Shown: positions 13,328 through 31,437 of the stretch, one piece after another
Layout: each line of letters begins with the position of its first letter
Position numbering within the stretch: the first letter of the stretch is position 1
Assembly: GCF_053078305.1 (NCBI RefSeq)
Contig: NZ_CP166879.1
Reading direction: 5' to 3' (one strand)
Length of the DNA stretch: 64,000 nt
The notes under the pieces: generated by a model
The model's database searches: none
Seen by the model: the letters and a program-made list of their open reading frames with translations, nothing else
Told to the model about the DNA's origin: nothing
Program-made: the position numbers and the translations under genes

Positions 13328-13344
13328 TTCTGCTTTTCAAAACC

Positions 13345-13382
13345 GCCTGTTTTTCTTGTCATGTGTTGTCAGAAAAACAGGC
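13345..13382. terminator. Inverted repeat (12-bp arms gcctgtttttct / agaaaaacaggc) between convergent narV and the 403-aa gene; possible bidirectional terminator
   Basis: Perfect 12-bp arms with a 14-nt loop, flanked by T/A runs. Confidence 0.45.
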
Positions 13383-13391
13383 TTTTCAACC

Positions 13392-14603
13392 TTAATGATT
13401 ATCTTCAAACTCTTCCAAAACATATTGAGCATGAAATTGAATACAGGGCCAGGATGAAACTAAACCAGCGCGAGCAGTGGGTACTTCATTGGCGGTGATG
13501 GTGCAAAACCCTCTTCCTGGTGCCATTTCTTTTGCTATGGCTTCAACCAGCTCTGGATGATGACTAAGGACAAACTCTAACGGGGTGTAATCTAAGGGTA
13601 AATGACGTCCGTGGTCCCGAAATGCCAGATATGGAGCTGTTACTCCACGAAGCAAAATTTCTACAGGGAGCTGGGAAATGCGTTCTACCAATAAATTCAT
13701 ATGCCCAAGCCGCGCTATAGCCGCTGCAGCCCAACAGCGGTTACTCCCATCGGCTGTTTGATCGTCCAGCAGGCTTGTCAAAACAGCAATCACATCCTCA
13801 TTAGATTCATTAATTTCTGCAATCAATTTACAGGCATTCCATGCTTTGTCTGCATTTTTAACTTCTTGCAGCAAAGCAGGTAACGCCAGTTGACCTAGTT
13901 GTTTGAGTAATACTTCGTAATCGTCTAAAAGTAGACCCGGCGTTTTTCTGCCAAATATTTGCGCGATTAATTCTGCTATCCGTGCTTGTGAAGGCAAACT
14001 TTTCAGATATTGCCTCTCCTGTTCAGCCTGAGAATATTGAGGAAAATATTGCAATATTTGTTTTTTTGTCAGACTTAACGGGATCAACTCACCAACCTCA
14101 TCAGAGGCTATGGCGATAAAGTTTTTCTCCACTACCCCTTCACGTAAGAGTTGTAGTCGTGCTTTTTTGGCTGCTTTCGGAAAAACACGCAGGAATTGCG
14201 CGTACACCTCATACCAGGCATCAAATGTTCCATTAATAGCAGCGAACTCATGGCATTCATTAGCCCATTGTTCGCATTCTTCGTTAGGTTCATCATTGTA
14301 CTTATGGTCCGCAGGCGACCAGCGTAAGTCCTGTGTGAGTTTTTCTACGTTTTGTGTAAATCCATTTTTCTGATAAGCAGTAACAATAGAGGCCAGGCTT
14401 TCCTCAGTGCCAACTGCCAGACAAGGCCAGTCAATGATGTCCCCATCCCCATAAAAACAATGAAACATGGCACCATAGATATGTTGGCATGGGTGTTCCT
14501 GATGTATATGTTTAACGGAAGCTACCATGTAATTAATGGCAGCCGTTTCCATCCCTTTCCAGTCAAATTGTACTTGCTTCATAAAGCGGTCCGTGTAAGG
14601 CAA
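13392..14603 (-). CDS. Hypothetical protein, 403 aa, cytoplasmic, function unknown; low-GC gene inserted between narV and yddE
   Basis: Long clean ORF with no signal peptide or TM segments; about 45% GC versus roughly 52% for the flanks; I do not recall a gene at this position in K-12. Confidence 0.6.
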   Translation of the reverse strand: MPYTDRFMKQVQFDWKGMETAAINYMVASVKHIHQEHPCQHIYGAMFHCFYGDGDIIDWPCLAVGTEESLASIVTAYQKNGFTQNVEKLTQDLRWSPADHKYNDEPNEECEQWANECHEFAAINGTFDAWYEVYAQFLRVFPKAAKKARLQLLREGVVEKNFIAIASDEVGELIPLSLTKKQILQYFPQYSQAEQERQYLKSLPSQARIAELIAQIFGRKTPGLLLDDYEVLLKQLGQLALPALLQEVKNADKAWNACKLIAEINESNEDVIAVLTSLLDDQTADGSNRCWAAAAIARLGHMNLLVERISQLPVEILLRGVTAPYLAFRDHGRHLPLDYTPLEFVLSHHPELVEAIAKEMAPGRGFCTITANEVPTARAGLVSSWPCIQFHAQYVLEEFEDNH

Positions 14604-14718
14604 TATAGAGAGTTAACCATTTTATCCTGATAGTTATTTCAACATGACTTGCCAAGGATTAATTCAGAAAAGTGCCCTAAACAGGCTATGATAGTTCTCC
14701 AGTCACAGGAGAACGTTA

Positions 14719-17606: not shown

Positions 17607-18594
17607 AATAATGCCAGGGCAAGATTACGAAAGCCTTCTCCCCGCAAGGACTGACGCCAGGTAGTTTCTGTCCATGGCTGCTTTTCGCATCTTACGTCTT
17701 AACCCTGCCTTGAATACCTTATCATTCGTCAAAATATTAATAGCAATGTGCCGTATCCCTGAAAATAATTCTGCTGCATTTCCTCTTCTTATTTTGCAGT
17801 CGTCTTCATTCATTACCACGTCCAGACGCCAGTGCAGCTTATTCTCCACGTGCCAGTGGTTTCGGATTGCTGTGGCGAACTTCTCTGCGGTTAAATCAGC
17901 AGAACTGATATAATATCTGACCGTCATTTCTGGCTCTTTCTTTTGTTCTGCTATTATTGAGCGAAATGAGACTGCCATGCATAATTTCTTCAGCCCTTTC
18001 CATTCAAACGTGAAATCAATAAGTTCATCAGGGATATCGCAGACAATATGGAGACGGATTTTAATGACATGAATCGCTCCCCTGCGGCGACTCTTGTCAT
18101 AAGAGTGCCGGAGCGTTTTTCCATCAATTGCAATGACGTCTTTATCATCTGAAGAATGGCAGTCACGCATCCAGTTAATAAAGCACTCGTGAAATTTTGC
18201 AGGACTGATACAGGATACAACTCTGGCAATGGTATCGTGAACAGGAATACCATTTTCAAAATCACCATATTGCTTCAAAAAATCGAGATGTGTTTCCCCA
18301 AAATCCTCTATATCTTCCCAACCTTCTGCACCAGAAACAACGGCACAAATAATCAACAGTAGAATATCCGATAATTTATGTTCCACTTTCCAGGCTTGTC
18401 TGTAATCGGGGATAATAGAAATATGTTCCATCAATTTTTTAAGTTCCATTTTGTTTCCTTAATTATGTAAGGAGTATTTGATCATGTATAAGCAATAAAA
18501 AACAGCTTTAGGTAATGAGGAACATATCAATTTTTAAACATAAAATGCGAATTATTTAGTACAAAAAGTGTACTTCCGATGATCTTTCCCTGCC
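17607..18594 (-). mobile_element. H-repeat (ISAs1-family) element, copy A, with internally deleted transposase
   Basis: Ends defined by where similarity to copy B (24395–25377) and to the remnant at 30421–30577 starts and stops. Confidence 0.6.
17625..18449 (-). CDS. H-repeat-associated protein / ISAs1-family transposase with an in-frame internal deletion (274 aa instead of about 378 aa)
   Basis: [32 protein letters not shown] ... matches the H-rpt protein (YdcC-like); about 100 central residues are missing between ...AIHVIK and IRLHIVCD... Confidence 0.8.
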
Positions 18595-18862
18595 ATTAAA
18601 TAATGTCTTATTTGACCTTGCCAACATACAACAAAATAATTGAAATATATTCAAAATTAATTTAAACATTCATCAGGCGTCCTTTTCTAAAAAACCTAAT
18701 CATTTAATGGTTAAATTACAATCAAACAAACAAAGTAAACTGGAATTATAGTTGTGGTGCACTTCACGATTTTAGCATTCTTGCTCCTACATTTATACTC
18801 TCTGCCGCGGAAATTTGTTCTCGAAACTTAACTAAACCCAATCAATCATCCTTGCCTTATCG

Positions 18863-19366
18863 TTACTTGAATTTATCAAGACATTTATCATTGCTGACAC
18901 TTTCAATATTTATATGATATACAGTTCCTGTGTTTGAGATATATACTTCCTTAAGCTTATCAGTTTTACTCTCATTATTATAAAAGTAGCCCCCGATAAT
19001 TTTATTCTTCTTTGATATATAAGTGACAGTGTCAGTATGAACTCCACCATTTATTGTCATAATGAATGAGGCATCCAAGTTCATCGTACTTTCCCCCTTA
19101 AAATATATTTTACCATTAGAAATCACTTTGGTCTCAGAAACACCGTTAGGCTCGTCATTACTAATTAATATAAGTAAATCTACCATTTCGGATTTTTTAT
19201 CTCTTTCTTTATAACCACCAATATCATCCAGGATATTATTTGACACTTTTCCACAAAGCATCACTGAGTAATTATTCAAATTTTTGAGTTGAGAGCACTT
19301 TGCCACAAAAGAGAATGAAATAAATATCAAACCTACCGAAATGATTATTGTTTTTTTAAAATTCAT
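18863..19366 (-). CDS. Putative immunity protein for the upstream effector; secreted/periplasmic (signal peptide)
   Basis: 167 aa, hydrophobic N-terminal signal sequence, AT-rich; starts 4 nt after the effector stop. Confidence 0.55.
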   Translation of the reverse strand: MNFKKTIIISVGLIFISFSFVAKCSQLKNLNNYSVMLCGKVSNNILDDIGGYKERDKKSEMVDLLILISNDEPNGVSETKVISNGKIYFKGESTMNLDASFIMTINGGVHTDTVTYISKKNKIIGGYFYNNESKTDKLKEVYISNTGTVYHINIESVSNDKCLDKFK

Positions 19367-19370
19367 TGTT

Positions 19371-21449
19371 TTAAAGAATCCTTATGTAATTAAGTGGAGG
19401 TGTTATTTCATCATTCAATACATACCAAGAATGCTCAAATGCTGGCCAACGCACTAAATCGAAGCCATCTGCTGCTGGGTTTATTCGCCGTGTAACTTCT
19501 CTGGCATCTGACAAACTACATCCTTTATCCGCCCAATAATTAACGCCTAAACTACCACTAGGTGTCAATCGATGGCTTACCATTATGTATTTTTGCTTAC
19601 TTGCCCAAAAGTATCCCCCGGCATCGCAAGAAAAATAGGCATTTTCAACTGGGAGTTGGTTATTGGGTTCTGTAGTAAAAAAATCATCATCTGACGGATT
19701 TCTATACTTTCCATAATTTCTATAATTCTCACGACCAGTTAGATGTATGGTACCTCTGCCTTTAAATCTTGCACCATCACCAACAACATTATTTCCAAGC
19801 TTAAGTCCCTGTTCTGTTCCTGGCTCATACATATCAAAATAACTCGAATCACCATTCTCTATAAAAGACGCAAATCTGCCTGTTTCTCTCGCCATCTGAC
19901 CGAAATAATGCGCAATCCGCAATGGGGTTGTAATTAAGTACTTCCTTAGTGACTTTGACAGTTCATTTTTCAACCCTGCAGGTCTTATCACCTCACCACT
20001 GCTATTTTGTCCTTGGCTAGTAATCCGCTCAATTAGAGTGTCTTTACTTAATGGTCTTGTAAGTTCTGATGTCATGGGATAAGCATTTTGATAACGTCTT
20101 ACCACACTTATAATATCATTTTCTCCTAACCACCCACATTTCCTGAAATGTGCAATAAACTGCCTGGGATCAAAATGCCATACACGCCTGGCAGGTAACG
20201 GATTATCTACCAAACAAAGCGCCTTACAGTGTTCTATCAGCAAATCCAGGTCAGGCTCTGTCATCGGCTTACTCAATACGTCATTGGGTGATTTCAGCCA
20301 CTCAAACCGTGATTCCACGGTGGCGCTGTCCCATTCTAGCGGAAAATGACAAATCATCCGACTTAGGTCATTGCGGGTTGTACACAGGATTGTTGGTGAA
20401 TTGCACTGGCTGTTGGTGTCCGCATCATCGTTCACCAGTTTCCACCCTGTCCAGTGTGGAAAATCACCGTCGCTGTAAACCCTGATATCTCTCGCCCCTA
20501 AGTTAACAACGCCTTTACCCTGTGGCGTATTGATTGTTCGCCACAGCGGCGCATCCGCCGGGACTAATTCTTCATATTCTGTATTAACAACCCGACCAAA
20601 ACGCAGCATCTCATAACCGGCACTTGGGCTTTTCGGATAGAGTTGCAGCGCGTAGGAATAGAGATTGTATTCATAATCCTTACCATCAGCATTAATCAAG
20701 GGAGAACCTACTTCAGTATAGGTATCACTCAGCACTTCATGCTGCTGACGCGTCACCATCGTACAATTGCCTTTATCAAAACTCATTGTGACATACAATG
20801 GCACGCTGGTTCTTTGTACCGGACTGTTGTTCGCAAGCGAGTTTTCTTCCGGCATGTCCCCATAAATCGGTGTTCCGGCAGGGAGATAAAAATGACTATC
20901 ACCGTAAACCACATCAGTTCGTCCATCTTTATTCAGGTCTGTTTCCGGTGATATTCTTCCTGTGATTTTCTGAATGTTTTCATCATCACAAAAAATCTGA
21001 AAATGAAAGGCGTTCTGTCCGTCCACCATCCCTGCTGCACCAACCGGTTCTTTCCGGTATAGCGTGTTTCCCGGCTGCACATTACTGTCAATGCTTCTCA
21101 GGTGCATATATAATGAGTAATAGACGATTTTACCCTCTTCTCCACTACCGATTTCTGTTTCATGTTTTATCAGAACATAGCCTTTATCCGTAACTCCGTT
21201 ATAATTTAACGGAGGAACTGTATTTTCCGCTGGTTCTGGCTGGCGTATTGAAATAACCTTCCCATCGGCAATACACCTAACAGTCTCTGACAGATTGCCG
21301 TTCAAATGAACTCCACCATGCCAAGAACGACCGCTATTCATTGGGAAATTTCTTTCTGGATCAACAGACATCATTCTGTTTACCCAGTCAGAGTCTTTTT
21401 CAGTGTCTATATGCGCATGCAATATTGGAGGGCTGATTATCATTATCAA
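19371..21449 (-). CDS. Putative T6SS cargo effector, 692 aa: N-terminal LytM/M23-like domain and C-terminal GH19/lysozyme-like domain (peptidoglycan hydrolase candidate)
   Basis: N-terminal motifs WHGGVHL ... GYVLIKHE ... YYSLYMHL resemble degenerate M23 motifs; C-terminal FKGRGTIHLTGRENYRNYGKY and GGYFWAS resemble GH19 signatures; immediately downstream of vgrG. Confidence 0.6.
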   Translation of the reverse strand: MIMIISPPILHAHIDTEKDSDWVNRMMSVDPERNFPMNSGRSWHGGVHLNGNLSETVRCIADGKVISIRQPEPAENTVPPLNYNGVTDKGYVLIKHETEIGSGEEGKIVYYSLYMHLRSIDSNVQPGNTLYRKEPVGAAGMVDGQNAFHFQIFCDDENIQKITGRISPETDLNKDGRTDVVYGDSHFYLPAGTPIYGDMPEENSLANNSPVQRTSVPLYVTMSFDKGNCTMVTRQQHEVLSDTYTEVGSPLINADGKDYEYNLYSYALQLYPKSPSAGYEMLRFGRVVNTEYEELVPADAPLWRTINTPQGKGVVNLGARDIRVYSDGDFPHWTGWKLVNDDADTNSQCNSPTILCTTRNDLSRMICHFPLEWDSATVESRFEWLKSPNDVLSKPMTEPDLDLLIEHCKALCLVDNPLPARRVWHFDPRQFIAHFRKCGWLGENDIISVVRRYQNAYPMTSELTRPLSKDTLIERITSQGQNSSGEVIRPAGLKNELSKSLRKYLITTPLRIAHYFGQMARETGRFASFIENGDSSYFDMYEPGTEQGLKLGNNVVGDGARFKGRGTIHLTGRENYRNYGKYRNPSDDDFFTTEPNNQLPVENAYFSCDAGGYFWASKQKYIMVSHRLTPSGSLGVNYWADKGCSLSDAREVTRRINPAADGFDLVRWPAFEHSWYVLNDEITPPLNYIRIL

Positions 21450-21590
21450 TAGTCCTTATTAAGCTTATAAAACATGTAACGAGTATGAATTATTCATTCA
21501 CAGAGCATCTCTGCTTAGAAAGCAGAAAATCACAGTATTATTGTATTATTACTACCGTCATCCGTTATCTTTATCTGAATGATTATCCCA

Positions 21591-23737
21591 CTACGAGAAC
21601 ATGAACTTCACTCTGGTCTCATCATTACCGATATCATCATCAGTATTACTATCCGTATCATTAGTGACTAAAGTGTTCAGGACAGTGGGTTGCAGTGTCG
21701 GTACCGGTGTCCCCGGACTCCCCCCACCATTAAGATTTATCTTCGGCCCCACTATATCCACGCCGCCCGGCTGAATAACGATAAACGAGCCACCCACCTT
21801 CAGGCTTATCCGGCTGCTGCTCTCCAGCACGATATCCCCGTCCACCTTTATCCCCAGCGCGCCACTCACCTTCCTCGCCAGGTCCCCCTTCACCACCAGG
21901 CTGTGTTTCCCCTCCACCAGACTGATATGGTTCCCCGTCGTCTTATGCTCCTGCTTCCCTTCCACCGTCACTTTACGGTCGTTTCTGACGTACAGACCGT
22001 CATCGTGACTCACGCTCACCGTCCGGTCATTCGTCACCTTCAGAGTCTGGTCATTACGTACTGTGATACGCCGGTCGTTCGCCACCGTGATACTCTGGTC
22101 GTGGCCCCCTCTTTTTTTGTACCGACCTGAACCGTCTGGCCCTTCACCACCGTTATCTTCTGGTCGTTACCAATGGTTTCCGTGTGGTCATGCTTCACGT
22201 CCGTCGTCCGGTCGTTGAGCACTTCCGTATCCATGTTCTTCTGCGCATGGATATACACCTGCTCATTACTGGTGGCGTCTTCAAACCGCAGCTCGTTAAA
22301 TCCGCTTCCTTTATAGGTTTTTGACCGGATGGTCATCTGCGTCTTCGTTCCCGGCAGGTCGCCCGGCGAACGGTTGTCCTCATGGTACGTCCGCCCCATG
22401 ATTATCGGCTGGTCCGGGTCGCCGTTCAGGAAGTCCACTATCACCTCCTGACCCACCCGCGGTATCGCCAGATTACCGAACCCCGGCCCCGCCCACGCCT
22501 GCGATACACGCACCCAGCATGAACTCGCCTCCGTCATCCCGTGATAACGGTCCCAGTGGAACTTCACCCGTACCCGGCCATGTTCATCGCAGAAGATTTC
22601 CTCTCCCGCAGGCCCGGTGACAATGGTGCTCTGTGGCCCGTCCACCTTCGGTTTGCTTTGCAGCCGTGGACGCCACGTCCGGTCTGCCGGTATCACCTCT
22701 AACTGATTTCCCAGTGTGGTTCCTCTCCCCTGGCTGCCGTGCAACGCCTGCGGCTGGCTTCCTGACAGTATGCTCTGTACCACCTGCCATTCACGGTTCA
22801 GCATCTTCTGCGGATGCCCCGTCAGCGTAAACCGCGTTCCCGGCCACAGCTTCGGTGAATTACTCTGCCCTGTGGCCTTTTCCGCATCACTGCGCAGGCT
22901 GTCCATCTGATACAGCGTGAAATCCTTGCCGTGCTGCTCATCCTTGAACCTTCCCGGATAATCAAATATCTCGTACTGCGCGTGCTGTCCGTTCAGCCTC
23001 TCACCCTGCTGTTCGTATATCCCCGGCCAGTCCGGCACCTTAAACGTGTAATCCTGACTCTGCACCGACGACGGGCGGACATGCGCCTCATAACGGAACA
23101 TACTGAGACACTCCGTCTCCGCTCCTGCCGATGTGTCCGGGTTAAACGGAAGCTCTCCCGCCTGTGACAGCCCCGCCACATCGTCGCACAGCGTCAGCTT
23201 CTGCTCCGGGCTGTCCGCCGCAAACCGCTCAAAGAAGAAAATCCCCTCCTCCGCCCACAGCCGGGACAGAAACGCCAGGTCGCTCTCTCCGTACTGGACA
23301 CAGAACTCCCGCGCCGGATGGTCCTCATAAAACAGCGGCGTCCACTCCGTGACGCCGTTCTCGTTCAGTAACGTGGCCGATATCGTCCGGATATCCTGCT
23401 GCTGAAAAATACGAAAGTTCTGCCGCAGCCCGCACCGCCATAACGGCGGCTCAATACGCAGGTGATAACGCATCTGCCAGCCGTTGTTCTCCTGCATGCC
23501 AAAGCCCGCCACCACGCCAGTGACATAACGCAGCGGAATGACGCCCTGCCAGATGGTCAGCGTTGCGTTCTTCTCCAGCAGCATCTCCGCCGTCTGCATA
23601 AAAGAGTCGCTGGCAACATCCACACTCATCACAAACGGATAAGACTGGTTCTGGATTAACCTGAAATTCACCACTGCAAAGGTGTCCGGCTCCTGGCCGT
23701 CAACCTCCAGCGTAAAGCGAAGACCTTTTAAGGACAT
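21591..23737 (-). pseudogene. vgrG: vgrG (T6SS spike protein), copy A, disrupted by a 1-nt deletion in a homopolymer (C5 on + strand at 22105–22109); ORFs 22040..23737 and 21591..22085 are one gene
   Basis: Conserved VgrG motifs LRFTLEVDG, GLRQNFRIFQ, GPQS.IVTGPAGEEIFCDEHGRVRVKFHWDRY, NLAIPRVGQEVIVDFLNGDPDQPIIMGRTYH; reading through the G-run restores ...KKEGGHDQSITVANDRRITV... as in copy B. Confidence 0.8.
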
Positions 23738-24180
23738 AAATACCTCTCTGGTATATCAGCCTATATTTACCGTGCCGCCACCAATAACCACGCCGCCGCA
23801 GTCAATGGCATCACCGGTTCTGGCGGCGGGCAGGCCGTCAATAAAGACGGTTGAAGAGCCTCTGGCGATTTTTCGGGGATGAGGTGGATGCTTCGGTTTA
23901 GCATGCGGCGTCGGCGGATCTCCCTGACGGGCTGCGGGGAGACCATCGATAAAAACGGTGGATGACCCGGCGGTGATGACGGTCTCGTAATAACCGTCGT
24001 GCTGAGTGCCTTTGTCGGTGAGTTTGGCTGCTAAAGGCATAATTCCTCCTGTTCAGAATTTCTACAGCAGCAGGTTTCAAAAATCCGGAGAAATATTCAA
24101 CGAAACATTAATCACTTCACCGGATATTCTGACACGTACCTTCACTAGTCTATTTAAGTAATACAAATTGTTGGCGTGTA
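22128..24180 (-). repeat. Duplicated PAAR–vgrG 5' segment, copy A (paralogous to 28368–30420, high but not perfect identity)
   Basis: Near-identical nucleotide stretches including the leader upstream of PAAR (taattcctcctgtt(c/a)agaatttctacagcagcaggtttcaaaaatccggag...). Confidence 0.85.
23756..24040 (-). CDS. PAAR-repeat protein (T6SS spike tip), 94 aa
   Basis: Two GLPAAR(Q/T)GD motifs; directly upstream of vgrG. Confidence 0.8.
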   Translation of the reverse strand: MPLAAKLTDKGTQHDGYYETVITAGSSTVFIDGLPAARQGDPPTPHAKPKHPPHPRKIARGSSTVFIDGLPAARTGDAIDCGGVVIGGGTVNIG

Positions 24181-24394
24181 ATACCCCATTCTCCTTTCAT
24201 TATCTTTGCCTTTAAAACAGAAAGTTCTTGAAATATATATTTAAGGAAAAAACCACGATAAACACCACAAGGATAATATAAATCACCAAGTTATCGAAAA
24301 TTTAAAAAATCACGCGTCAGATCTGATAAAAAATAGGCTATCACATGTAACTCCTGGGCGATCTCGCAAAAATTAAATTATAAAAATACATGAC

Positions 24395-25377
24395 GCAGGG
24401 CAAGATTACGAAAACCCGCTCCCCGCAAGGACTGACGTCAGGTAGTTTCTGTCCATGGCTGCTTTTCGCATCTTACGTCTTAACCCTGCCCTGGATACCT
24501 TATCATTCATCAAAATATTAATAGCAATGTGCCGTATCCCTGAAAATAATTCTGCTGCGTTTCCTCTTCTTATTTTGCAGTCGTCTTCATTCATTACCAC
24601 GCCCAGACGCCAGTGCAGCTTATTCTCCACGTACCAGTGGTTTCGGATTGCTGTGGCGAACTTCTCTGCGGTTAAATCAGCAGAACTGATATAATATCTG
24701 ACCGTCATTTTGGGATTTTTCTTTTGTTCTGCTATTATTGAGCGAAATGAGACTGCCATGCATAATTTCTTCAGCCCTTTCCATTCAAACGTGAAATCAA
24801 TAAGTTCATCAGGGATATCGCAGACAATATGGAGACGGATTTTAATGACATGAATCACTCCCCTGCGGCGACTCTTGTCATAAGAGTGCCGGAGCGTTTT
24901 TCCATCAATTGCAATGACGTCTTTATCATCTGAAGAATGGCAGTCACGCATCCAGTTAATAAAGCACTCGTGAAATTTTGCAGGACTGATACAGGATACA
25001 ACACTGGCAATGATATCGTGAACAGGAATACCATTTTCAAAATCACCATATCACTTCAAAACATCGGGATGTGTTTCCCCAAAATCCTCTATATCTCCCA
25101 GTCTTATGCACCAGAAATAACGGCGCAAATAGTTAACAGATAGAATATCTGGCAATTTATGTTCCACTTTCCAGGCTTGCCTGTAATCGGGGATAACAGA
25201 AATATGTTCCATCAATTTTTTAAGTTCCATTTTGTTCTCCTTAATTATGTAAGGGGTATTTGATCATGTGTAAGCAATAAAAAACAGCTTCAGGCAATAA
25301 GGAATATCTCAATTTTCAAACATAAAATGTGAATTATTTAGTACAAAAAGTGTACTTCTGATGATCTTTCCCTGCCC
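24395..25377 (-). mobile_element. H-repeat (ISAs1-family) element, copy B, degraded
   Basis: Homologous to copy A over its whole length, with the same internal deletion plus extra substitutions and indels. Confidence 0.6.
24406..25231 (-). pseudogene. H-repeat/ISAs1-family transposase pseudogene (frameshifted N-terminal region; same internal deletion as copy A)
   Basis: ORF 24406..24951 encodes the C-terminal part ([20 protein letters not shown]...); the N-terminal [11 protein letters not shown]... lies in other frames near 25231. Confidence 0.7.
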
Positions 25378-25453
25378 TTGTTTATTAGGTATATACCATA
25401 AATACTGAGTATTTTATTGTGCTATTTGTTTATTAAAAATTTGCGAGCAATAA

Positions 25454-25933
25454 TTAAAGATTGCCATCTTCATTGCCGACGAAATAAATATCAAATGAAC
25501 ACTCCAATCCAAGATTAGCCATTATTTTCATCTGCTCAGGCCATAAAGTTGGCCCACCGTGCCAATTCAATGATCTCCAGGTACAGTCAATACCCATTGA
25601 AATATTTTCTAATGCTTGCAATTTTGCAATATTTGATGATTTAGGTCCAAGTTTGTGAAGTAGCCAATCCAGATGTTCTCGAATATCTTTCGAGTTCACT
25701 AGATTTTCTGACGAGAGCATCCAATATGAATTTTTTGCATATCTTTTCTTTCCCGATAGAGTAATAATTTCATCTCCTTTTATATTAATTGATGTTGGCT
25801 CAAGTTCTAAGTGAATACTTATTTCATTAGGGTGAGTATTACCTGTGTAAATCAAGAGGCTAGCATAGCACTCATCACAACTTGGATATTCATGAGATAT
25901 CGGGGTAAGCCTTGATTGTATATTCTTAATCAT
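25454..25933 (-). CDS. Putative immunity protein for effector B; cytoplasmic, 159 aa
   Basis: No signal peptide; start overlaps the effector stop (translational coupling); AT-rich. Confidence 0.5.
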   Translation of the reverse strand: MIKNIQSRLTPISHEYPSCDECYASLLIYTGNTHPNEISIHLELEPTSINIKGDEIITLSGKKRYAKNSYWMLSSENLVNSKDIREHLDWLLHKLGPKSSNIAKLQALENISMGIDCTWRSLNWHGGPTLWPEQMKIMANLGLECSFDIYFVGNEDGNL

Positions 25934-27063
25934 AAATAATCCTCTATGTTTCCTAAAATATTTCCTGAGTCATCAATATAATCACCATTATCAAGTATTC
26001 GACCATGGTGATCACCTCGTAAGCGTAAATCTTTTTTCAACTTTTCTAAAGCTTTCCCCCATTCTCTCCTGTTAATATTTTTACCAAAAAATTCATTTAA
26101 CTCCCTGGCAGTTCTTGCCTCAAGAGTATTACCTCCAGTTTGTAATACTCTCGGAACTCTTCCCGCAGCGCCAACGCTTGGAGGAACAGGAATAGGCAAT
26201 CCATTTGCATCCAGCACAATTTTAGCACCGCTCCTCCCCATTCTGCCAACCGATTTTATTGCAAACTTCGCTGAAAACTTGACCAAACCTTTCACCAGTG
26301 CTCCAACCCCGGTCATAAGTTCCAGCCATGGCTCAACCTCCATCGCCATTGCTTGGGTTTCATTGGCAGGTTTCAACAATGGCTCTCTAGGATCAATAGT
26401 TTCCATTACCTCCCTGTTGGTCTCATTCGCCCGCTCCATAATTTGGGTATCCATCCCCAACCCTCTCGCCAGAGCAATATTACTTTCCATTTGGGCAATG
26501 TCATTTTGCATCTGACCTTTGGCAATCAATGCACCCAACATATACCAGCCATTAATAAATGCCTTGCCTAATCCTATCATTGCATCTGCTTCTTGCTTTT
26601 TGGACTCAAGCTCAAACTCTTGCTGTTGTCTTTGCAGTTCCAGATACCTGGCCCAAAGCGATGATTCTTTAACAGGTATTATCTGATTTGGCAGGTTTGT
26701 CTGGGTATACAGTTTTCCAACAGTATTATCATTATTCATGGCAACCAGCGAAAGATTCCTGGCTACCGGCTTTCCCTTGCACTTTATATGATCCACGCCT
26801 GTCAGTATCCGGCAGTCACCGCTGCCCAGACTGGTGCCAGAACTGACACCTTTCCCGGCATTACTTCGTGTACCTGCAATAATACAGTCCACGGTCAGTA
26901 CTGGATTGCCCCGTGCCCTGACATTGCTGATATAAATTTTCTCATGTGTCAGGTCCTGAAAGCTGTCAAACGGCACTATCGCATCACCAACCTTGCAGAC
27001 ATCAGGCGCAATACATATCGCAACGTACTTCGATTCACGACAACCAATATGATTTTCAGCCAT
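25930..27063 (-). CDS. Putative T6SS effector, 377 aa: N-terminal PAAR-like (DUF4150-type) domain fused to a C-terminal toxin domain of unassigned family
   Basis: N-terminus ...YVAICIAPDVCKVGDAIVPF... resembles the PAAR-like DUF4150 signature; downstream of vgrG and an adaptor-like gene, followed by an overlapping small ORF. Confidence 0.55.
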   Translation of the reverse strand: MAENHIGCRESKYVAICIAPDVCKVGDAIVPFDSFQDLTHEKIYISNVRARGNPVLTVDCIIAGTRSNAGKGVSSGTSLGSGDCRILTGVDHIKCKGKPVARNLSLVAMNNDNTVGKLYTQTNLPNQIIPVKESSLWARYLELQRQQQEFELESKKQEADAMIGLGKAFINGWYMLGALIAKGQMQNDIAQMESNIALARGLGMDTQIMERANETNREVMETIDPREPLLKPANETQAMAMEVEPWLELMTGVGALVKGLVKFSAKFAIKSVGRMGRSGAKIVLDANGLPIPVPPSVGAAGRVPRVLQTGGNTLEARTARELNEFFGKNINRREWGKALEKLKKDLRLRGDHHGRILDNGDYIDDSGNILGNIEDYL

Positions 27064-27997
27064 GAGGTCCCCTCTGCTCCGTCGTCAAAACAATACGTTG
27101 TGGAAGAGAATCCACGGGGAGCGTTAAGCGCCAGAGTAGTGTTAGTTGCTCATCGTCTGTGTGGATGGTCAGTGTGTCAGCCAACAATGGGCGCAGTTCT
27201 ACGTTTTTATCAGAGCGGTAAAACAAATACGCCAATAGTCTAATATCTGGAAGGAAACAAATTTGTTCCATTTTAGAAGGTAATAGGCCGTTCAATATAA
27301 TTTTTTCATTGCCAATTAAATAACCATCGTATTGTTGTTCTGGTGGAGAATAATTCATGAATGCAAAATCGAATTCATCTGGATAAAAAGGTTGAACAGT
27401 CTTTTGCCACTGTTCTGTAAAACCTCTGGCATAGCGCAATCGTGAAGGCCAGCTACGGCAAATAGCTCCTGGTGAGGCAGATAACTGTGGAGCTGGACAG
27501 GGCGATTTATCGCCAAGCGTTATCAGGGAGGGAATAACAATGCCTACAGGATTAAATTCACTGGCTGACGCCAGTTCATGGCGTAACAGTACCCGATCAG
27601 TTAATTCAGGTTCGCTAAGTTGCCAGCGGTTAGATATATATTGCCATTGGCAAGGGCCACATATATCAAATTGGCGCTGAAGATTACCAACCTGTAAACT
27701 GGCCTGCCATCGAGTGGTTTCCCCGGTGGCATGCCATGCGTGTCCATTTAATAAAACATCTGCCCTGACTTTTCTGCAAACCAAATCGGTTGCTGTTTTA
27801 AGACTGCTGCTTTCCGGTTCGCCGTACCAGGAGTCGGTCATCAGTGGCAGTCGCTGCTCATCCGCAATCAGACAGAGACCGCCGCTATATGAAAAATCAA
27901 ATGTCTGATTAACTACCACTACTGTGAATAACTCACCATAATATCCCACTTTTTCGAACTGAAAGTGAGGTAAACCAGTTTCATTTTCAATATTCAT
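27056..27997 (-). CDS. Putative T6SS effector adaptor/chaperone (DUF2169- or DUF4123-like by position), 313 aa
   Basis: Lies between vgrG and the PAAR-like effector; overlaps the effector start by 8 nt; no recognisable catalytic motif. Confidence 0.4.
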   Translation of the reverse strand: MNIENETGLPHFQFEKVGYYGELFTVVVVNQTFDFSYSGGLCLIADEQRLPLMTDSWYGEPESSSLKTATDLVCRKVRADVLLNGHAWHATGETTRWQASLQVGNLQRQFDICGPCQWQYISNRWQLSEPELTDRVLLRHELASASEFNPVGIVIPSLITLGDKSPCPAPQLSASPGAICRSWPSRLRYARGFTEQWQKTVQPFYPDEFDFAFMNYSPPEQQYDGYLIGNEKIILNGLLPSKMEQICFLPDIRLLAYLFYRSDKNVELRPLLADTLTIHTDDEQLTLLWRLTLPVDSLPQRIVLTTEQRGPHG

Positions 27998-28012
27998 GTT
28001 AATTTCTCCAGA

Positions 28013-29977
28013 TTAATCCAGATCAATATCTGCGCCGAAAATATTGATTTTATCTTTTCCTTCAATCTGGATACTTTTACCATTGAGAATGATAGTACCG
28101 TCCTTATTCATTTTCAGTAAGCATTCACCGACTTTAATGGTGAGGCTGTTGGTAACTGTCAGGCTGTAATCTTCTCCAACTTTAATATCCTGGGATTTCA
28201 CGACTTCTTCGGTATCTTTTCCTATTATCTTACTGATTTGATCGTTCCCTACATCCTTGTGACGATCGTGGGTAACATCCAGCCGCTGATCGTTTTGTAC
28301 CGTAATGGTCTGGTCATTCGCCACTGTCACTTTCTGGTCATGACCACCTTCCTTTTTGCTCCCCACATTCACCGTCTGGCCCTTCACCACCGTTATCTTC
28401 TGGTCGTTACCAATGGTTTCCGTGTGGTCATGCTTCACGTCCGTCGTCCGGTCATTCAGCACTTCCGTATCCATGTTCTTCTGCGCGTGAATATAGACCT
28501 GTTCCTTATCTGTGGCGTCCTCAAAGCGCAGCTCGTTAAATCCGCTTCCTTTATAGGTCTTCGACCGGATGGTCATTTGTGTCTTCGTTCCCGGCAGGTC
28601 GCCCGGCGAACGGTTGTCTTCATGGTATGTGCGTCCCGTCACAATGGGCTGGTCCGGGTCGCCGTTCAGAAAGTCCACTATCACCTCCTGACCCACACGC
28701 GGTATCGCCAGATTACCGAACCCCGGCCCCGCCCACGCCTGCGATACACGCACCCAGCATGAACTCGCCTCCGTCATCCCGTGATAACGGTCCCAGTGGA
28801 ACTTCACCCGTACCCGGCCATGTTCATCGCAGAAGATTTCCTCTCCCGCAGGCCCGGTGACAATGGCGCTCTGTGGCCCGTCCACCTTCGGTTTGCTTTG
28901 CAGCCGTGGACGCCACGTCCGGTCTGCCGGTATCACCTCTAACTGATTTCCCAGCGTGGTTCCTCTCCCCTGGCTGCCGTGCAGCGCCTGCGGCTGGCTT
29001 CCTGACAGTATGCTCTGTACCACCTGCCATTCACGGTTCAGCATCTTCTGCGGATGCCCCGTCAGCGTAAACCGCGTTCCCGGCCACAGCTTCGGTGAAT
29101 TACTCTGCCCTGTGGCCTTTTCCGCATCACTGCGCAGGCTCTCCATCTGGTACAGCGTGAAATCCTTGCCGTGCTGCTCGTCCTTGAACCTTCCCGGATA
29201 ATCAAATATCTCGTACTGCTCCAGCTGTCCGTTCAGGTTCTCACCCTGCTGCTCATACATCCCCGGCCAGTCCGGCACCTTAAACGTGTAATCCTGGCTC
29301 TGCACCGACGACGGGCGGACATGCGCCTCATAACGGAACATACTGACACACTCCGTCTCCGCTCCTGCCGATGTATCCGGGTTAAACGGAAGCTCCCCCG
29401 CCTGTGACAGCCCCGCCACATCGTCGCACAGCGTCAGCTTCTGCTCCGGGCTGTCCGCCGCAAACCGCTCAAAGAAGAAAATTCCCTCCTCCGCCCACAG
29501 CCGCGCCAGAAACGCCAGGTCCGACTCCCCGTACTGCACACAGAACTCCCGCGCCGGATGGTCCTCATAATACAGCGGCGTCCACTCCGTGACGCCGTTC
29601 TCGTTCAGTAACGTGGCCGATATCGTCCGGATATCCTGCTGCTGGAAGATACGGAAGTTCTGCCGCAGCCCGCACCGCCATAACGGCGGCTCAATACGCA
29701 GGTGATAACGCATCTGCCAGCCGTTATTCTCCTGCATGCCAAAGCCCGCCACCACGCCGGTGACATAACGCAGCGGGATGACGCCCTGCCAGATGGTCAG
29801 CGTCGCCTTCTTCTCCAGCAGCATCTCCGCCGTCTGCATAAAAGAGTCGCTGGCAACATCCACACTCATCACAAACGGATATGACTGGTTCTGGATTAAC
29901 CTGAAATTCACCACTGCAAAGGTGTCCGGCTCCTGGCCGTCAACCTCCAGCGTAAAGCGCAGACCTTTTAAGGACAT
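28013..29977 (-). CDS. vgrG: VgrG (T6SS spike protein), copy B, intact, 654 aa, with a C-terminal tail distinct from copy A
   Basis: Same conserved VgrG motifs as copy A; C-terminus ...KVGEDYSLTVTNSLTIKVGECLLKMNKDGTIILNGKSIQIEGKDKINIFGADIDLD differs from copy A. Confidence 0.88.
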   Translation of the reverse strand: MSLKGLRFTLEVDGQEPDTFAVVNFRLIQNQSYPFVMSVDVASDSFMQTAEMLLEKKATLTIWQGVIPLRYVTGVVAGFGMQENNGWQMRYHLRIEPPLWRCGLRQNFRIFQQQDIRTISATLLNENGVTEWTPLYYEDHPAREFCVQYGESDLAFLARLWAEEGIFFFERFAADSPEQKLTLCDDVAGLSQAGELPFNPDTSAGAETECVSMFRYEAHVRPSSVQSQDYTFKVPDWPGMYEQQGENLNGQLEQYEIFDYPGRFKDEQHGKDFTLYQMESLRSDAEKATGQSNSPKLWPGTRFTLTGHPQKMLNREWQVVQSILSGSQPQALHGSQGRGTTLGNQLEVIPADRTWRPRLQSKPKVDGPQSAIVTGPAGEEIFCDEHGRVRVKFHWDRYHGMTEASSCWVRVSQAWAGPGFGNLAIPRVGQEVIVDFLNGDPDQPIVTGRTYHEDNRSPGDLPGTKTQMTIRSKTYKGSGFNELRFEDATDKEQVYIHAQKNMDTEVLNDRTTDVKHDHTETIGNDQKITVVKGQTVNVGSKKEGGHDQKVTVANDQTITVQNDQRLDVTHDRHKDVGNDQISKIIGKDTEEVVKSQDIKVGEDYSLTVTNSLTIKVGECLLKMNKDGTIILNGKSIQIEGKDKINIFGADIDLD

Positions 29978-30420
29978 AAATACCTCTCAGACATATCAGC
30001 CTATATTTACCGTACCGCCACCAATGACCACACCACCACAGTCGATGGCATCACCGGTTCTGGCGGCGGGCAGGCCGTCAATAAAGACGGTTGACGAGCC
30101 TCTGGCGATTTTACGGGGATGAGGGGGATGCTTCGGTTTAGCATGCGGCGTCAGCGGATCTCCCTGGCGGGCTGCGGGGAGACCATCGATAAAAACGGTG
30201 GATGACCCGGCGGTGATGACGGTCTCGTAATAACCGTCGTGCTGGGTGCCTTTGTCGGTGAGTTTGGCTGCTAAAGGCATAATTCCTCCTGTTAAGAATT
30301 TCTACAGCAGCAGGTTTCAAAAATCCGGAGAAATATTCAACGAAATATTAATCACTTCACCGGATATTCTGATACGTACCTTCACTGGTCTATTTAAGTA
30401 ATACAAATTGTTGGCGTGTA
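28368..30420 (-). repeat. Duplicated PAAR–vgrG 5' segment, copy B
   Basis: Paralogous to 22128–24180. Confidence 0.85.
29996..30280 (-). CDS. PAAR-repeat protein, copy B, 94 aa
   Basis: Near-identical to 23756..24040; two PAAR motifs. Confidence 0.8.
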   Translation of the reverse strand: MPLAAKLTDKGTQHDGYYETVITAGSSTVFIDGLPAARQGDPLTPHAKPKHPPHPRKIARGSSTVFIDGLPAARTGDAIDCGGVVIGGGTVNIG

Positions 30421-30577
30421 TTAAGTTCCATTTTGTTCTCCTTAATTATGTAAGGAGTATTTGATCATGTATAAGCAATAAAAACAGCTTCAGGAAATAA
30501 GGAATATCGCAATTTTTAAACATAAAATGCGAATCGTTCAATACAAAAAAGCAGCGTTGCGTAATCTTTCCCTGATT
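30421..30577 (-). mobile_element. H-repeat left-end remnant (about 155 bp; transposase ORF deleted after the first codons)
   Basis: ttaagttccattttgttctccttaattatgtaaggagtatttgatcatgtataagcaataaaaa... matches the 5' ends of copies A and B. Confidence 0.65.
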
Positions 30578-30819
30578 AAATACGCTACCGCCCTACTCTG
30601 ATGACATGATCTGCACTGCACTATCATATCGACATGTTTCTCTACATGCGAAGAGATGTTTTATTTTCGGATTATATTAAATTGATATTTCATATAAAAA
30701 ACGAAATTACATCAATCATATAAATAATTGTATCAACTTTAATTACTATTCATAGCAAACAAATGGATATCCAGTTAACTACGCCAGTGATTCATTAACA
30801 TTAACCTCCGGCATTATTG

Positions 30820-31437
30820 TTAAATAATGACATTCCTTTTTAATACTTCTTGTAATTTCGGTAACTGACATACAGCATCAGCAATCGCACTGATATTTGT
30901 GGCATTATCCTGAAACCATTCATGCCCAGGCCCCCATGTGCGCATAGTGCAAAGATAACAGTCCACCAGCGTTAGTTGCTCACCAAACGCATAAGGTTCA
31001 GCGGTCAATTGTGAATTCAGCCAGATATAAAGCGATTTACGATATTCAATAACATTCTTCTTTAACTGTTCGGGTGCGTCAGGAGCCCAACGCTCAGGGT
31101 AATCGGCGAAAGTGAATGTTGGATAGACATTAGCAACCAGCCAGACCAATAGCCGTTGAAACTGCTGACGTTCGGCGCGCCCAACCGGTGGCGCAAGGTC
31201 CGGGCGACGATCGAGAACCATCAATGCAATCGCCGCTGTCTCCGTCATAATCTCGTCATTTTCCAGCGCCAGTGTCGGAATCTGACACAACGGGTTCAGG
31301 GTTTTCAATAACTCGCGTGAAGTTCCCTCGTGGTCAAAACCACTGACATCAACGAACTGATAAGGAATATCAGCCAGTGTTAGCATCAGCTCACTGATTG
31401 TAGAGCCCCATCCGGGTACGCCATACACCTTAATCAT
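30820..31437 (-). CDS. yncG: Glutathione S-transferase-like protein YncG
   Basis: 205 aa, GST N-terminal thioredoxin-like fold signature (MIKVYGVPGWGS...). Confidence 0.85.
   Translation of the reverse strand: MIKVYGVPGWGSTISELMLTLADIPYQFVDVSGFDHEGTSRELLKTLNPLCQIPTLALENDEIMTETAAIALMVLDRRPDLAPPVGRAERQQFQRLLVWLVANVYPTFTFADYPERWAPDAPEQLKKNVIEYRKSLYIWLNSQLTAEPYAFGEQLTLVDCYLCTMRTWGPGHEWFQDNATNISAIADAVCQLPKLQEVLKRNVII

Follow-up and report, generated by a model that had tools for sequence, protein, structure and literature searches.

Organization of the RhsE locus

The 64,000-nt stretch of contig NZ_CP166879.1 (NCBI RefSeq assembly GCF_053078305.1) analyzed here, hereafter the window, includes the Escherichia coli RhsE locus between yncG and pptA. 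This locus is occupied by an array of two different type VI secretion system (T6SS) cassettes and by three copies (A, B, and C) of the H-repeat (H-rpt), an element of the ISAs1 family. Copies A and B share one 312-bp in-frame internal deletion (hereafter the delta-312 allele), while C is reduced to a 5' stub. The patterns described below suggest that the deleted element has probably spread as the tail of T6SS cassettes, by recombination.

Read along the minus strand, module 2 comes first, with yncG followed by stub C, PAAR, vgrG, DUF2169, Tox-PAAR-like, and DUF4279 genes, and copy B. Module 1 follows copy B with a spacer, a leader, PAAR, a frameshifted vgrG, an M23 peptidase gene, a small open reading frame (ORF), copy A, and pptA (Table 1). 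The composition is that of a T6SS vgrG island, in which PAAR and VgrG spike genes precede adaptor, effector, and immunity candidates (Pfam). RefSeq names the module 1 peptidase 'M23 family metallopeptidase', and the cargo proteins of module 2 (25454-27997) are likewise annotated in strains PS10-3 and NC101. The module 1 vgrG is an annotated frameshifted pseudogene in PS10-3, ETEC6335, and A16, and its homologue is intact in 33F4 (2148 nt). Given this frameshift, the M23 cassette of the window strain may be a displaced, inactive 'orphan'.

The window is 99.76% identical to strain PS10-3 (NZ_CP096837) over 19.9 kb, in reversed orientation. It carries ~1.3 kb that PS10-3 lacks at 13329-14682, between narI and yddE, including a 403-aa ORF at 13392-14603 (minus). 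In the K-12-like strain PSJ-23, the same yncG-pptA interval holds yncH, vgrG, rhsE, ydcD, an H-rpt pseudogene, and a full-length H-rpt, ydcC, adjoining pptA. We take the pseudogene between ydcD and ydcC to be the yncI of K-12, its RefSeq label being only that of a frameshifted ISAs1 family transposase; 'ISAs1 family transposase' is also the RefSeq label of A, B, and the K-12-like H-rpt copies. Homology to PSJ-23 ends at window position 30822, at most 2 nt from the stop codon of yncG, whose end is at 30820. Positions 30575-30819, the 245 nt separating yncG from stub C, are island-variant sequence, and yncH is absent.

Table 1. Features of the cassette array and its left neighbour, listed in minus-strand order.
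Feature	Position	Strand	Description
yncG	30820-31437		Left neighbour of the island
H-rpt relic C	30421-30574	minus	Left island boundary, 245 nt from the yncG stop codon
Module 2 PAAR gene	29996-30280	minus	Pfam assignment
Module 2 vgrG	28013-29977	minus	654 aa, intact; Pfam assignment
Module 2 DUF2169 adaptor gene	27056-27997	minus	Pfam assignment
Module 2 Tox-PAAR-like effector candidate	25930-27063	minus	Pfam assignment
Module 2 presumed immunity gene (DUF4279)	25454-25933	minus	Pfam assignment
H-rpt copy B	24396-25374	minus	Same 312-bp deletion as A; frameshifts +1/-1, in-frame stop; both inverted repeats
Spacer	24184-24395	minus	212 nt, joining H-rpt B (right end) to the PAAR leader; module 2 has no counterpart upstream
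Module 1 head	22047-24183	minus	137-nt leader, PAAR, and ~1690 nt of 5' vgrG sequence; homologous to 28286-30423
Module 1 PAAR gene	23756-24040	minus	Pfam PAAR_motif, E=5e-20
Module 1 vgrG	21591-23737	minus	Frameshifted, giving two ORFs (22040-23737, 21591-22085); Pfam Phage_GPD, Phage_base_V, Gp5_trimer_C
Module 1 M23-family peptidase (effector candidate)	19371-21449	minus	692 aa; Pfam Peptidase_M23, E=6e-5, under the gathering score
Module 1 presumed immunity gene	18863-19366	minus	167 aa; role assigned from position only
H-rpt copy A	17615-18592	minus	ISAs1 family; 312-bp internal deletion, both inverted repeats; ORF 17625-18449; abuts pptA

A shared deletion in copies A and B

The H-rpt ydcC adjoining pptA in PSJ-23 (L002:12001-13292) served as full-length reference. 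It spans 1292 bp between its CAGGG...CCCTG ends and contains a 1137-bp ORF encoding 378 aa, in agreement with the length given in a preliminary description of this DNA. Aligned to this reference, A and B lack the identical 312 bp, element nt 534-845, a loss that removes 104 codons (aa 130-233) and puts Lys in place of Ser130. The earlier proposals that the 274-aa transposase of A is missing about 100 central residues, and that B has the same junction along with extra frameshifts, were both borne out. The junction reads CATGTCATTA/AAATCCGTC and falls between 18062 and 18061 in A and between 24843 and 24842 in B; the alignment of A and B to ydcC revealed no microhomology there. The 274-aa ORF of A is intact and differs from ydcC at 7 synonymous and 9 non-synonymous codons, and the right flank of A is identical to that of the full-length ydcC in PSJ-23. 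B additionally carries one +1 frameshift, one -1 frameshift, and an in-frame TGA, and is annotated in PS10-3 as 'frameshifted; internal stop'. The window, PS10-3, ETEC6335, and A16 share one and the same copy A. Relative to B in those three strains, B of the window has two private single-nucleotide polymorphisms (SNPs), one of them 15 nt 5' of the junction (GAGCG to GAGTG), so that the window strain is closely related to the three but distinct from each.

The in-frame deletion removes part of the catalytic domain. Copy A retains PF13808 (DDE_Tnp_1_assoc, E=1.6e-33) and matches PF01609 (DDE_Tnp_1, E=6e-9) only partially, over profile positions 139-200, as compared to positions 3-200 (aa 102-343) in full-length YdcC. 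The motifs AIDGK (aa 107) and HWHVENKLH (aa 302) are kept in A, while TTDAMGCQ (aa 170) lies within the deleted residues. We presume the latter to be the second catalytic Asp motif, assigning D, D, and E to the three motifs from IS4-like DDE transposases generally. The delta-312 copy thus lacks the complete DDE triad of an autonomous element, and because the TTDAMGCQ stretch is gone, the deleted element is predicted to be catalytically dead and non-autonomous.

Terminal inverted repeats of ISAs1 family elements begin with CAGGG (the ISfinder rule), and the family generates target duplications of 8-10 bp. Inverted repeats starting with CAGGG are present in A (CAGGGAAAGATCA on the left and CAGGGCAAGATTA, as reverse complement, on the right), and B has the same ends. 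The preliminary description had called for a search for target-site duplications; neither the three copies nor the B...A composite had an abutting repeat, and the sole word shared by the ends of A was a non-abutting 7-mer, CATTATT. This absence fits recombination rather than transposition.

Relic C, described beforehand as only ~155 bp of the 5' end, indeed comprises the left inverted repeat, the 5' untranslated region, and the first 11 nt of the ORF (ATGGAACTTAA), ~155 nt in total, fused to the conserved 137-nt PAAR leader. The fusion places the H-rpt ribosome-binding site and start codon before a 13-codon ORF (MELNTRQQFVLLK; 30389-30431, minus) that stops ~100 nt ahead of the PAAR start. A weak promoter-like site (TATACA-17-CATAAT) occurs in relic C at 30473-30445. 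Scanning relic C and the PAAR leader for promoters and terminators gave 4 promoter-like sites against 3.3 expected from shuffles, which is no enrichment and leaves relic C unsupported as a supplier of a promoter.

Distribution among E. coli genomes

The junction was surveyed in 5426 complete E. coli genomes with a 50-nt query ('distant' mode, E<=1e-6), such that only junction-bearing DNA passes. A 120-nt query in megablast proved unfit for counting deleted copies, as halves from full-length copies get joined. The delta-312 junction occurred in 378 of the 5426 genomes (~7%), at 383 places, with two places in 5 genomes. The exact A-type junction sequence, which marks RhsE-locus copies, was present in 15 genomes. 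All seven of those inspected carried it at the RhsE locus (PS10-3, A30, ETEC6335, 33F4, and A16, as well as AHM8C212RI and AHM8C160RI, placed by coordinates).

Among the remaining junction-bearing genomes, all five sampled (UTI89, MS1737, A13, FEX669, and A21) had the junction at the yafV end of the main T6SS-1 cluster, downstream of a vgrG-DUF2169-PAAR-like or a vgrG-DUF4123-DUF3304-Tle1 cargo. The junction between the H-rpt right end and the flank of this T6SS-1 site was found in 372 genomes, and the allele is therefore essentially fixed there. Delta-312 is an old, widespread allele. Every context inspected was one of these two loci, rather than the many independent insertion sites over which a MITE-like element (miniature inverted-repeat transposable element) is dispersed. 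In UTI89, a second internal H-rpt fragment (L005:10740-10936; element nt 324-520, 85% identity) adjoins yafV, ~1.3 kb downstream of the delta-312 copy and past two small ORFs, one annotated 'integrating conjugative element protein'. A fragment in the same place was seen at four more loci (L004, L007, L008, and L009).

Stub C, with its yncG and PAAR flanks, was found in 686 of the 5426 genomes at 93.5-100% identity, and is thus not a decay product particular to the window strain. The arrangement seen downstream of B, consisting of the H-rpt right end, the spacer, and the PAAR leader, was present in 118 genomes. Matches to H-rpt as such were found at a median of 5 places per genome.

Mosaic structure of the copies and modules

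Copies A and B are 95.6% identical overall, and their differences are very unevenly spread. Over element nt 144-533, A is 99.0% identical to full-length ydcC and 95.1% identical to B. At nt 195-362, 14 of the 15 sites that are informative show the T6SS-1 type in B, among them the +T frameshift and the stop-creating changes, while A is of the full-length type at 13 of the 15. Across the junction, from nt 373 to 969, A and B show one difference, which is private to B of the window and absent from B of PS10-3, ETEC6335, and A16. Over nt 846-975, A and B each have 9-10 differences from ydcC. Window A turns ydcC-like at approximately nt 976 (nt 976-1292 are 98.7% identical to ydcC and 96.8% to the A-type copy of 33F4), while copy A of A30 stays 33F4-like until approximately nt 1200. 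These different switch points suggest two different joins to the resident H-rpt on the pptA side.

Homology between the two modules is confined to a 2138-nt head (94.8% identity by blastn) and a 978-nt tail. The cargoes between them are unrelated according to Pfam, with an M23 peptidase and an immunity candidate in module 1, and DUF2169, Tox-PAAR-like, and DUF4279 genes in module 2. Whole-length homology with uniform divergence, the signature of a tandem segmental duplication, is therefore lacking. The head is 91-92% identical to the T6SS-1 vgrG of UTI89, and the 5' part of the module 2 vgrG 90.8%. The H-rpt copies that follow the two cargo types at the T6SS-1 site have unlike left flanks and disagree over their first ~26 nt, but are 98-99% identical from nt 144 on, placing the right-hand crossover of cargo exchange inside H-rpt.

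Other arrangements of the array

NC101 carries the same module 2, with an identical DUF4279 protein accession and with left and right flanks as for B. Its H-rpt at the position of B consists of nt 4-53, 548-1167, and 1190-1291, thus retaining nt 548-845 and lacking nt 54-547. This structure was resolved by blastn-short, as MAFFT had forced the central segment under the 5' region. Judging from their retained segments, deletion alone can turn neither the NC101 copy into B nor B into the NC101 copy; the economical reading is that a full-length ancestor occupied this position and that delta-312 was later imported through recombination.

In 33F4, the M23 module and an A-type delta relic stand first in the array, followed by the spacer and PAAR, and the pptA-side H-rpt is a separate derivative (nt 26-52 and 829-1292). 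In A30, B is absent and a 105-nt H-rpt stub is fused to mid-vgrG. Across genomes, the relic remains joined to the 3' end of cargo modules, which argues for placement by recombination and not by transposition. The RhsE-locus derivatives in A0 34/86, EC10, NC101, 33F4, and A30 include deletions of nt 54-547, of nt 53-828, and of nt 67-620 (the last truncated at 765), along with 5' stubs of nt 1-156 and 26-130. Their breakpoints cluster near nt ~53, 534-548, and 829-846, and the first ~50 nt are kept in every variant.

A cassette array with H-rpt tails

From the anatomy of the copies, the identity of their junctions, their distribution, the mosaic SNPs, and the array orders, we infer a recombination mechanism, its direction, and a role for the relics as homology only. 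The most plausible explanation, which we consider probable, is that T6SS cassettes have been stacked, swapped, and gene-converted between PAAR-vgrG 5' heads and H-rpt 3' tails, with the delta-312 allele travelling along. A cassette would consist of a head (the 137-nt leader, PAAR, and the 5' two-thirds of vgrG), a variable effector/immunity cargo, and a defective H-repeat tail. The 312-bp deletion would have had a single origin, and would have reached the RhsE-locus copies through RecA-type homologous recombination and gene conversion between H-rpt copies. The allele would thus move attached to cassettes, neither by transposition nor by recent tandem duplication of one module.

Heads and tails may serve as homology arms for the exchange, stacking, and partial deletion of cassettes, the relics having no function beyond this homology. 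Stacking could result from unequal crossing-over, or from a circle (tail, spacer, head, and cargo) that is excised and then integrates, while partial deletion would leave stubs such as C. B and A are direct repeats 6781 bp apart, and could excise or integrate one unit as a circle. The preliminary description had held that the deleted element did not transpose independently; the predicted dead transposase, the lack of target-site duplications, and the attachment of the relic to cargo 3' ends all agree with this.

Several points weigh against this explanation. About a dozen sequences are too few to settle how many conversion events took place and in which direction, and the contexts inspected come from only ~14 of the 378 genomes. 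If A and B were truly co-duplicated and then overwritten in patches by third copies, a similar mosaic would be expected. Recombination is read here from sequence patterns rather than observed, and copy A, whose 274-aa ORF is intact, may have kept a protein function.

The preliminary description had explained the shared deletion by segmental duplication of the element together with its cargo module. Of that proposal, recombination and a deletion shared by descent are upheld, but not the duplication, at this locus, of one module and its element. In its strongest form, one cassette and its already deleted H-rpt would have been tandemly duplicated within the locus, with cargo replacement and divergence following later. 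The common junction of A and B, their direct-repeat spacing, the similar divergence of head and tail (94.8 and 95.6% identity), and an A/B haplotype at nt 846-969 that is not found in ydcC or in UTI89-type copies are all consistent with such an event. We nonetheless regard it as doubtful, since the cargoes are unrelated, the 5' half of A is nearer to full-length ydcC than to B, and the inactivating mutations of B are common to T6SS-1 copies of other strains. Moreover, the NC101 orthologue of B keeps the centre of the element, and each cassette occurs alone or in another order in other genomes, as in NC101, 33F4, and A30. In our judgement, a divergence of ~5% also seems too large for a recent in-strain duplication. 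An independent origin of the same 312-bp deletion in A, B, and the T6SS-1 copies at a hotspot is scarcely credible. The clustering of breakpoints in other H-rpt variants hints at preferred regions, but those endpoints are nearby and different, while the delta-312 junction is nucleotide-identical in every aligned copy with no microhomology to guide it.

Two further possibilities concern the activity of the element itself. Full-length H-rpt transposases elsewhere in the genome might mobilize the deleted element in trans, either as a MITE-like unit or as a composite transposon of B, module, and A. A and B have each kept the two terminal inverted repeats intact, and the median of 5 H-rpt-matching places per genome would offer potential sources. 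However, no copy, nor the composite, is bounded by abutting target-site duplications, and the junction occupies only two chromosomal loci in the ~14 contexts inspected. No transposition of H-rpt has been observed, according to the E. coli W genome paper (PMC3032704). Trans-mobilization is therefore unlikely, and we would assign it very little weight. It is equally hard to credit that the 274-aa protein encoded by A has been retained and domesticated, perhaps as a dominant-negative regulator of the H-rpt transposase resembling the KP repressor. Such a protein would combine the N-terminal DDE_Tnp_1_assoc domain with a C-terminal DDE part, the deletion is in frame, and the ORF is intact in the window, PS10-3, ETEC6335, A16, and A30. 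Yet B, the A-type copy of 33F4, and all sampled T6SS-1 delta copies are frameshifted or contain stops, and the 7 to 9 split of synonymous and non-synonymous differences gives no sign of strong constraint. Given this pseudogenization and this split, the intact ORF of A is probably just young.

The exchange of cassettes between heads and H-rpt tails also invites a bolder extension, to which we give a small chance. H-rpt relics may be the selected, portable 3' anchor of a RecA-dependent toxin cassette system of T6SS and Rhs loci, whose units would be excised as circles when one tail recombines with another and could reintegrate at any H-rpt. If true, this would account for the link between H-rpt and Rhs/VgrG loci, known for 30 years. 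A role for the 274-aa product, or for the ever-retained 5' ~50-150 nt, is another possibility, for instance in inverted-repeat binding or as a promoter for the next PAAR-vgrG.

Comparison with known systems

Outside the deletion, the window copies are 97-99% identical in nucleotide sequence to ydcC, and they resemble the H-rpt (ISEc1/ISEc5, ISAs1 family) of the E. coli K-12 Rhs elements (ydcC, the yncI pseudogene, yhhI, and ybfD/ybfL). They also share with the K-12 elements the pptA-side site at the RhsE locus, the position at the downstream end of an Rhs/VgrG toxin module, and the frequency of defective copies. Unlike the K-12 elements, they carry the 312-bp in-frame deletion and follow PAAR-vgrG-effector cassettes, not an rhs core gene. 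The feature is of a known kind, combining defective H-repeats at Rhs/VgrG loci with modular T6SS cassette arrays, and involves no new type of mechanism. What is new is the particular allele, its fixation at the T6SS-1 end, and the crossovers mapped inside the relic. A limited literature search (H-rpt, ISAs1, vgrG islands) found no description of the delta-312 allele, of its fixation at the T6SS-1 end, or of its 7% frequency.

These details matter mainly for annotation and for keeping the evolutionary record. A 274-aa 'ISAs1 family transposase' that RefSeq annotates as intact is likely a deletion allele without catalytic activity. At two loci in ~7% of E. coli genomes, a single such allele lies at the downstream boundary of T6SS cargo. 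Finally, crossover points inside H-rpt provide sequence evidence for the old idea that the H-repeats of Rhs/VgrG loci act as recombination substrates and not as active transposons.

Exchange of effector/immunity cassettes and the formation of orphan arrays are well known at T6SS, Rhs, and contact-dependent inhibition (CDI) loci, as in the module swapping at auxiliary clusters of Vibrio cholerae. The RhsE-locus array resembles these systems in that variable toxin/immunity cargo lies between a conserved 5' gene body and downstream sequence that is conserved as well. It likewise has older modules displaced downstream and partly truncated, as in the mid-vgrG fragment of A30 and the frameshifted vgrG of the window. 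Displaced C-terminal tips of rhs genes have been described as well (PMC3032704). The RhsE-locus array differs in that its downstream arm is an IS relic after every cassette, giving a regular head-cargo-tail period of 6781 bp from A to B.

Similarly, delta-312 recalls MITE-like elements and the KP derivatives of the Drosophila P element, in which an in-frame deletion removes catalytic residues while the terminal inverted repeats and N-terminal domain are kept. In contrast to them, it has no target-site duplications, occupies two loci among the inspected copies, and is further pseudogenized in most copies, with no indication of trans-mobilization or of a repressor function.

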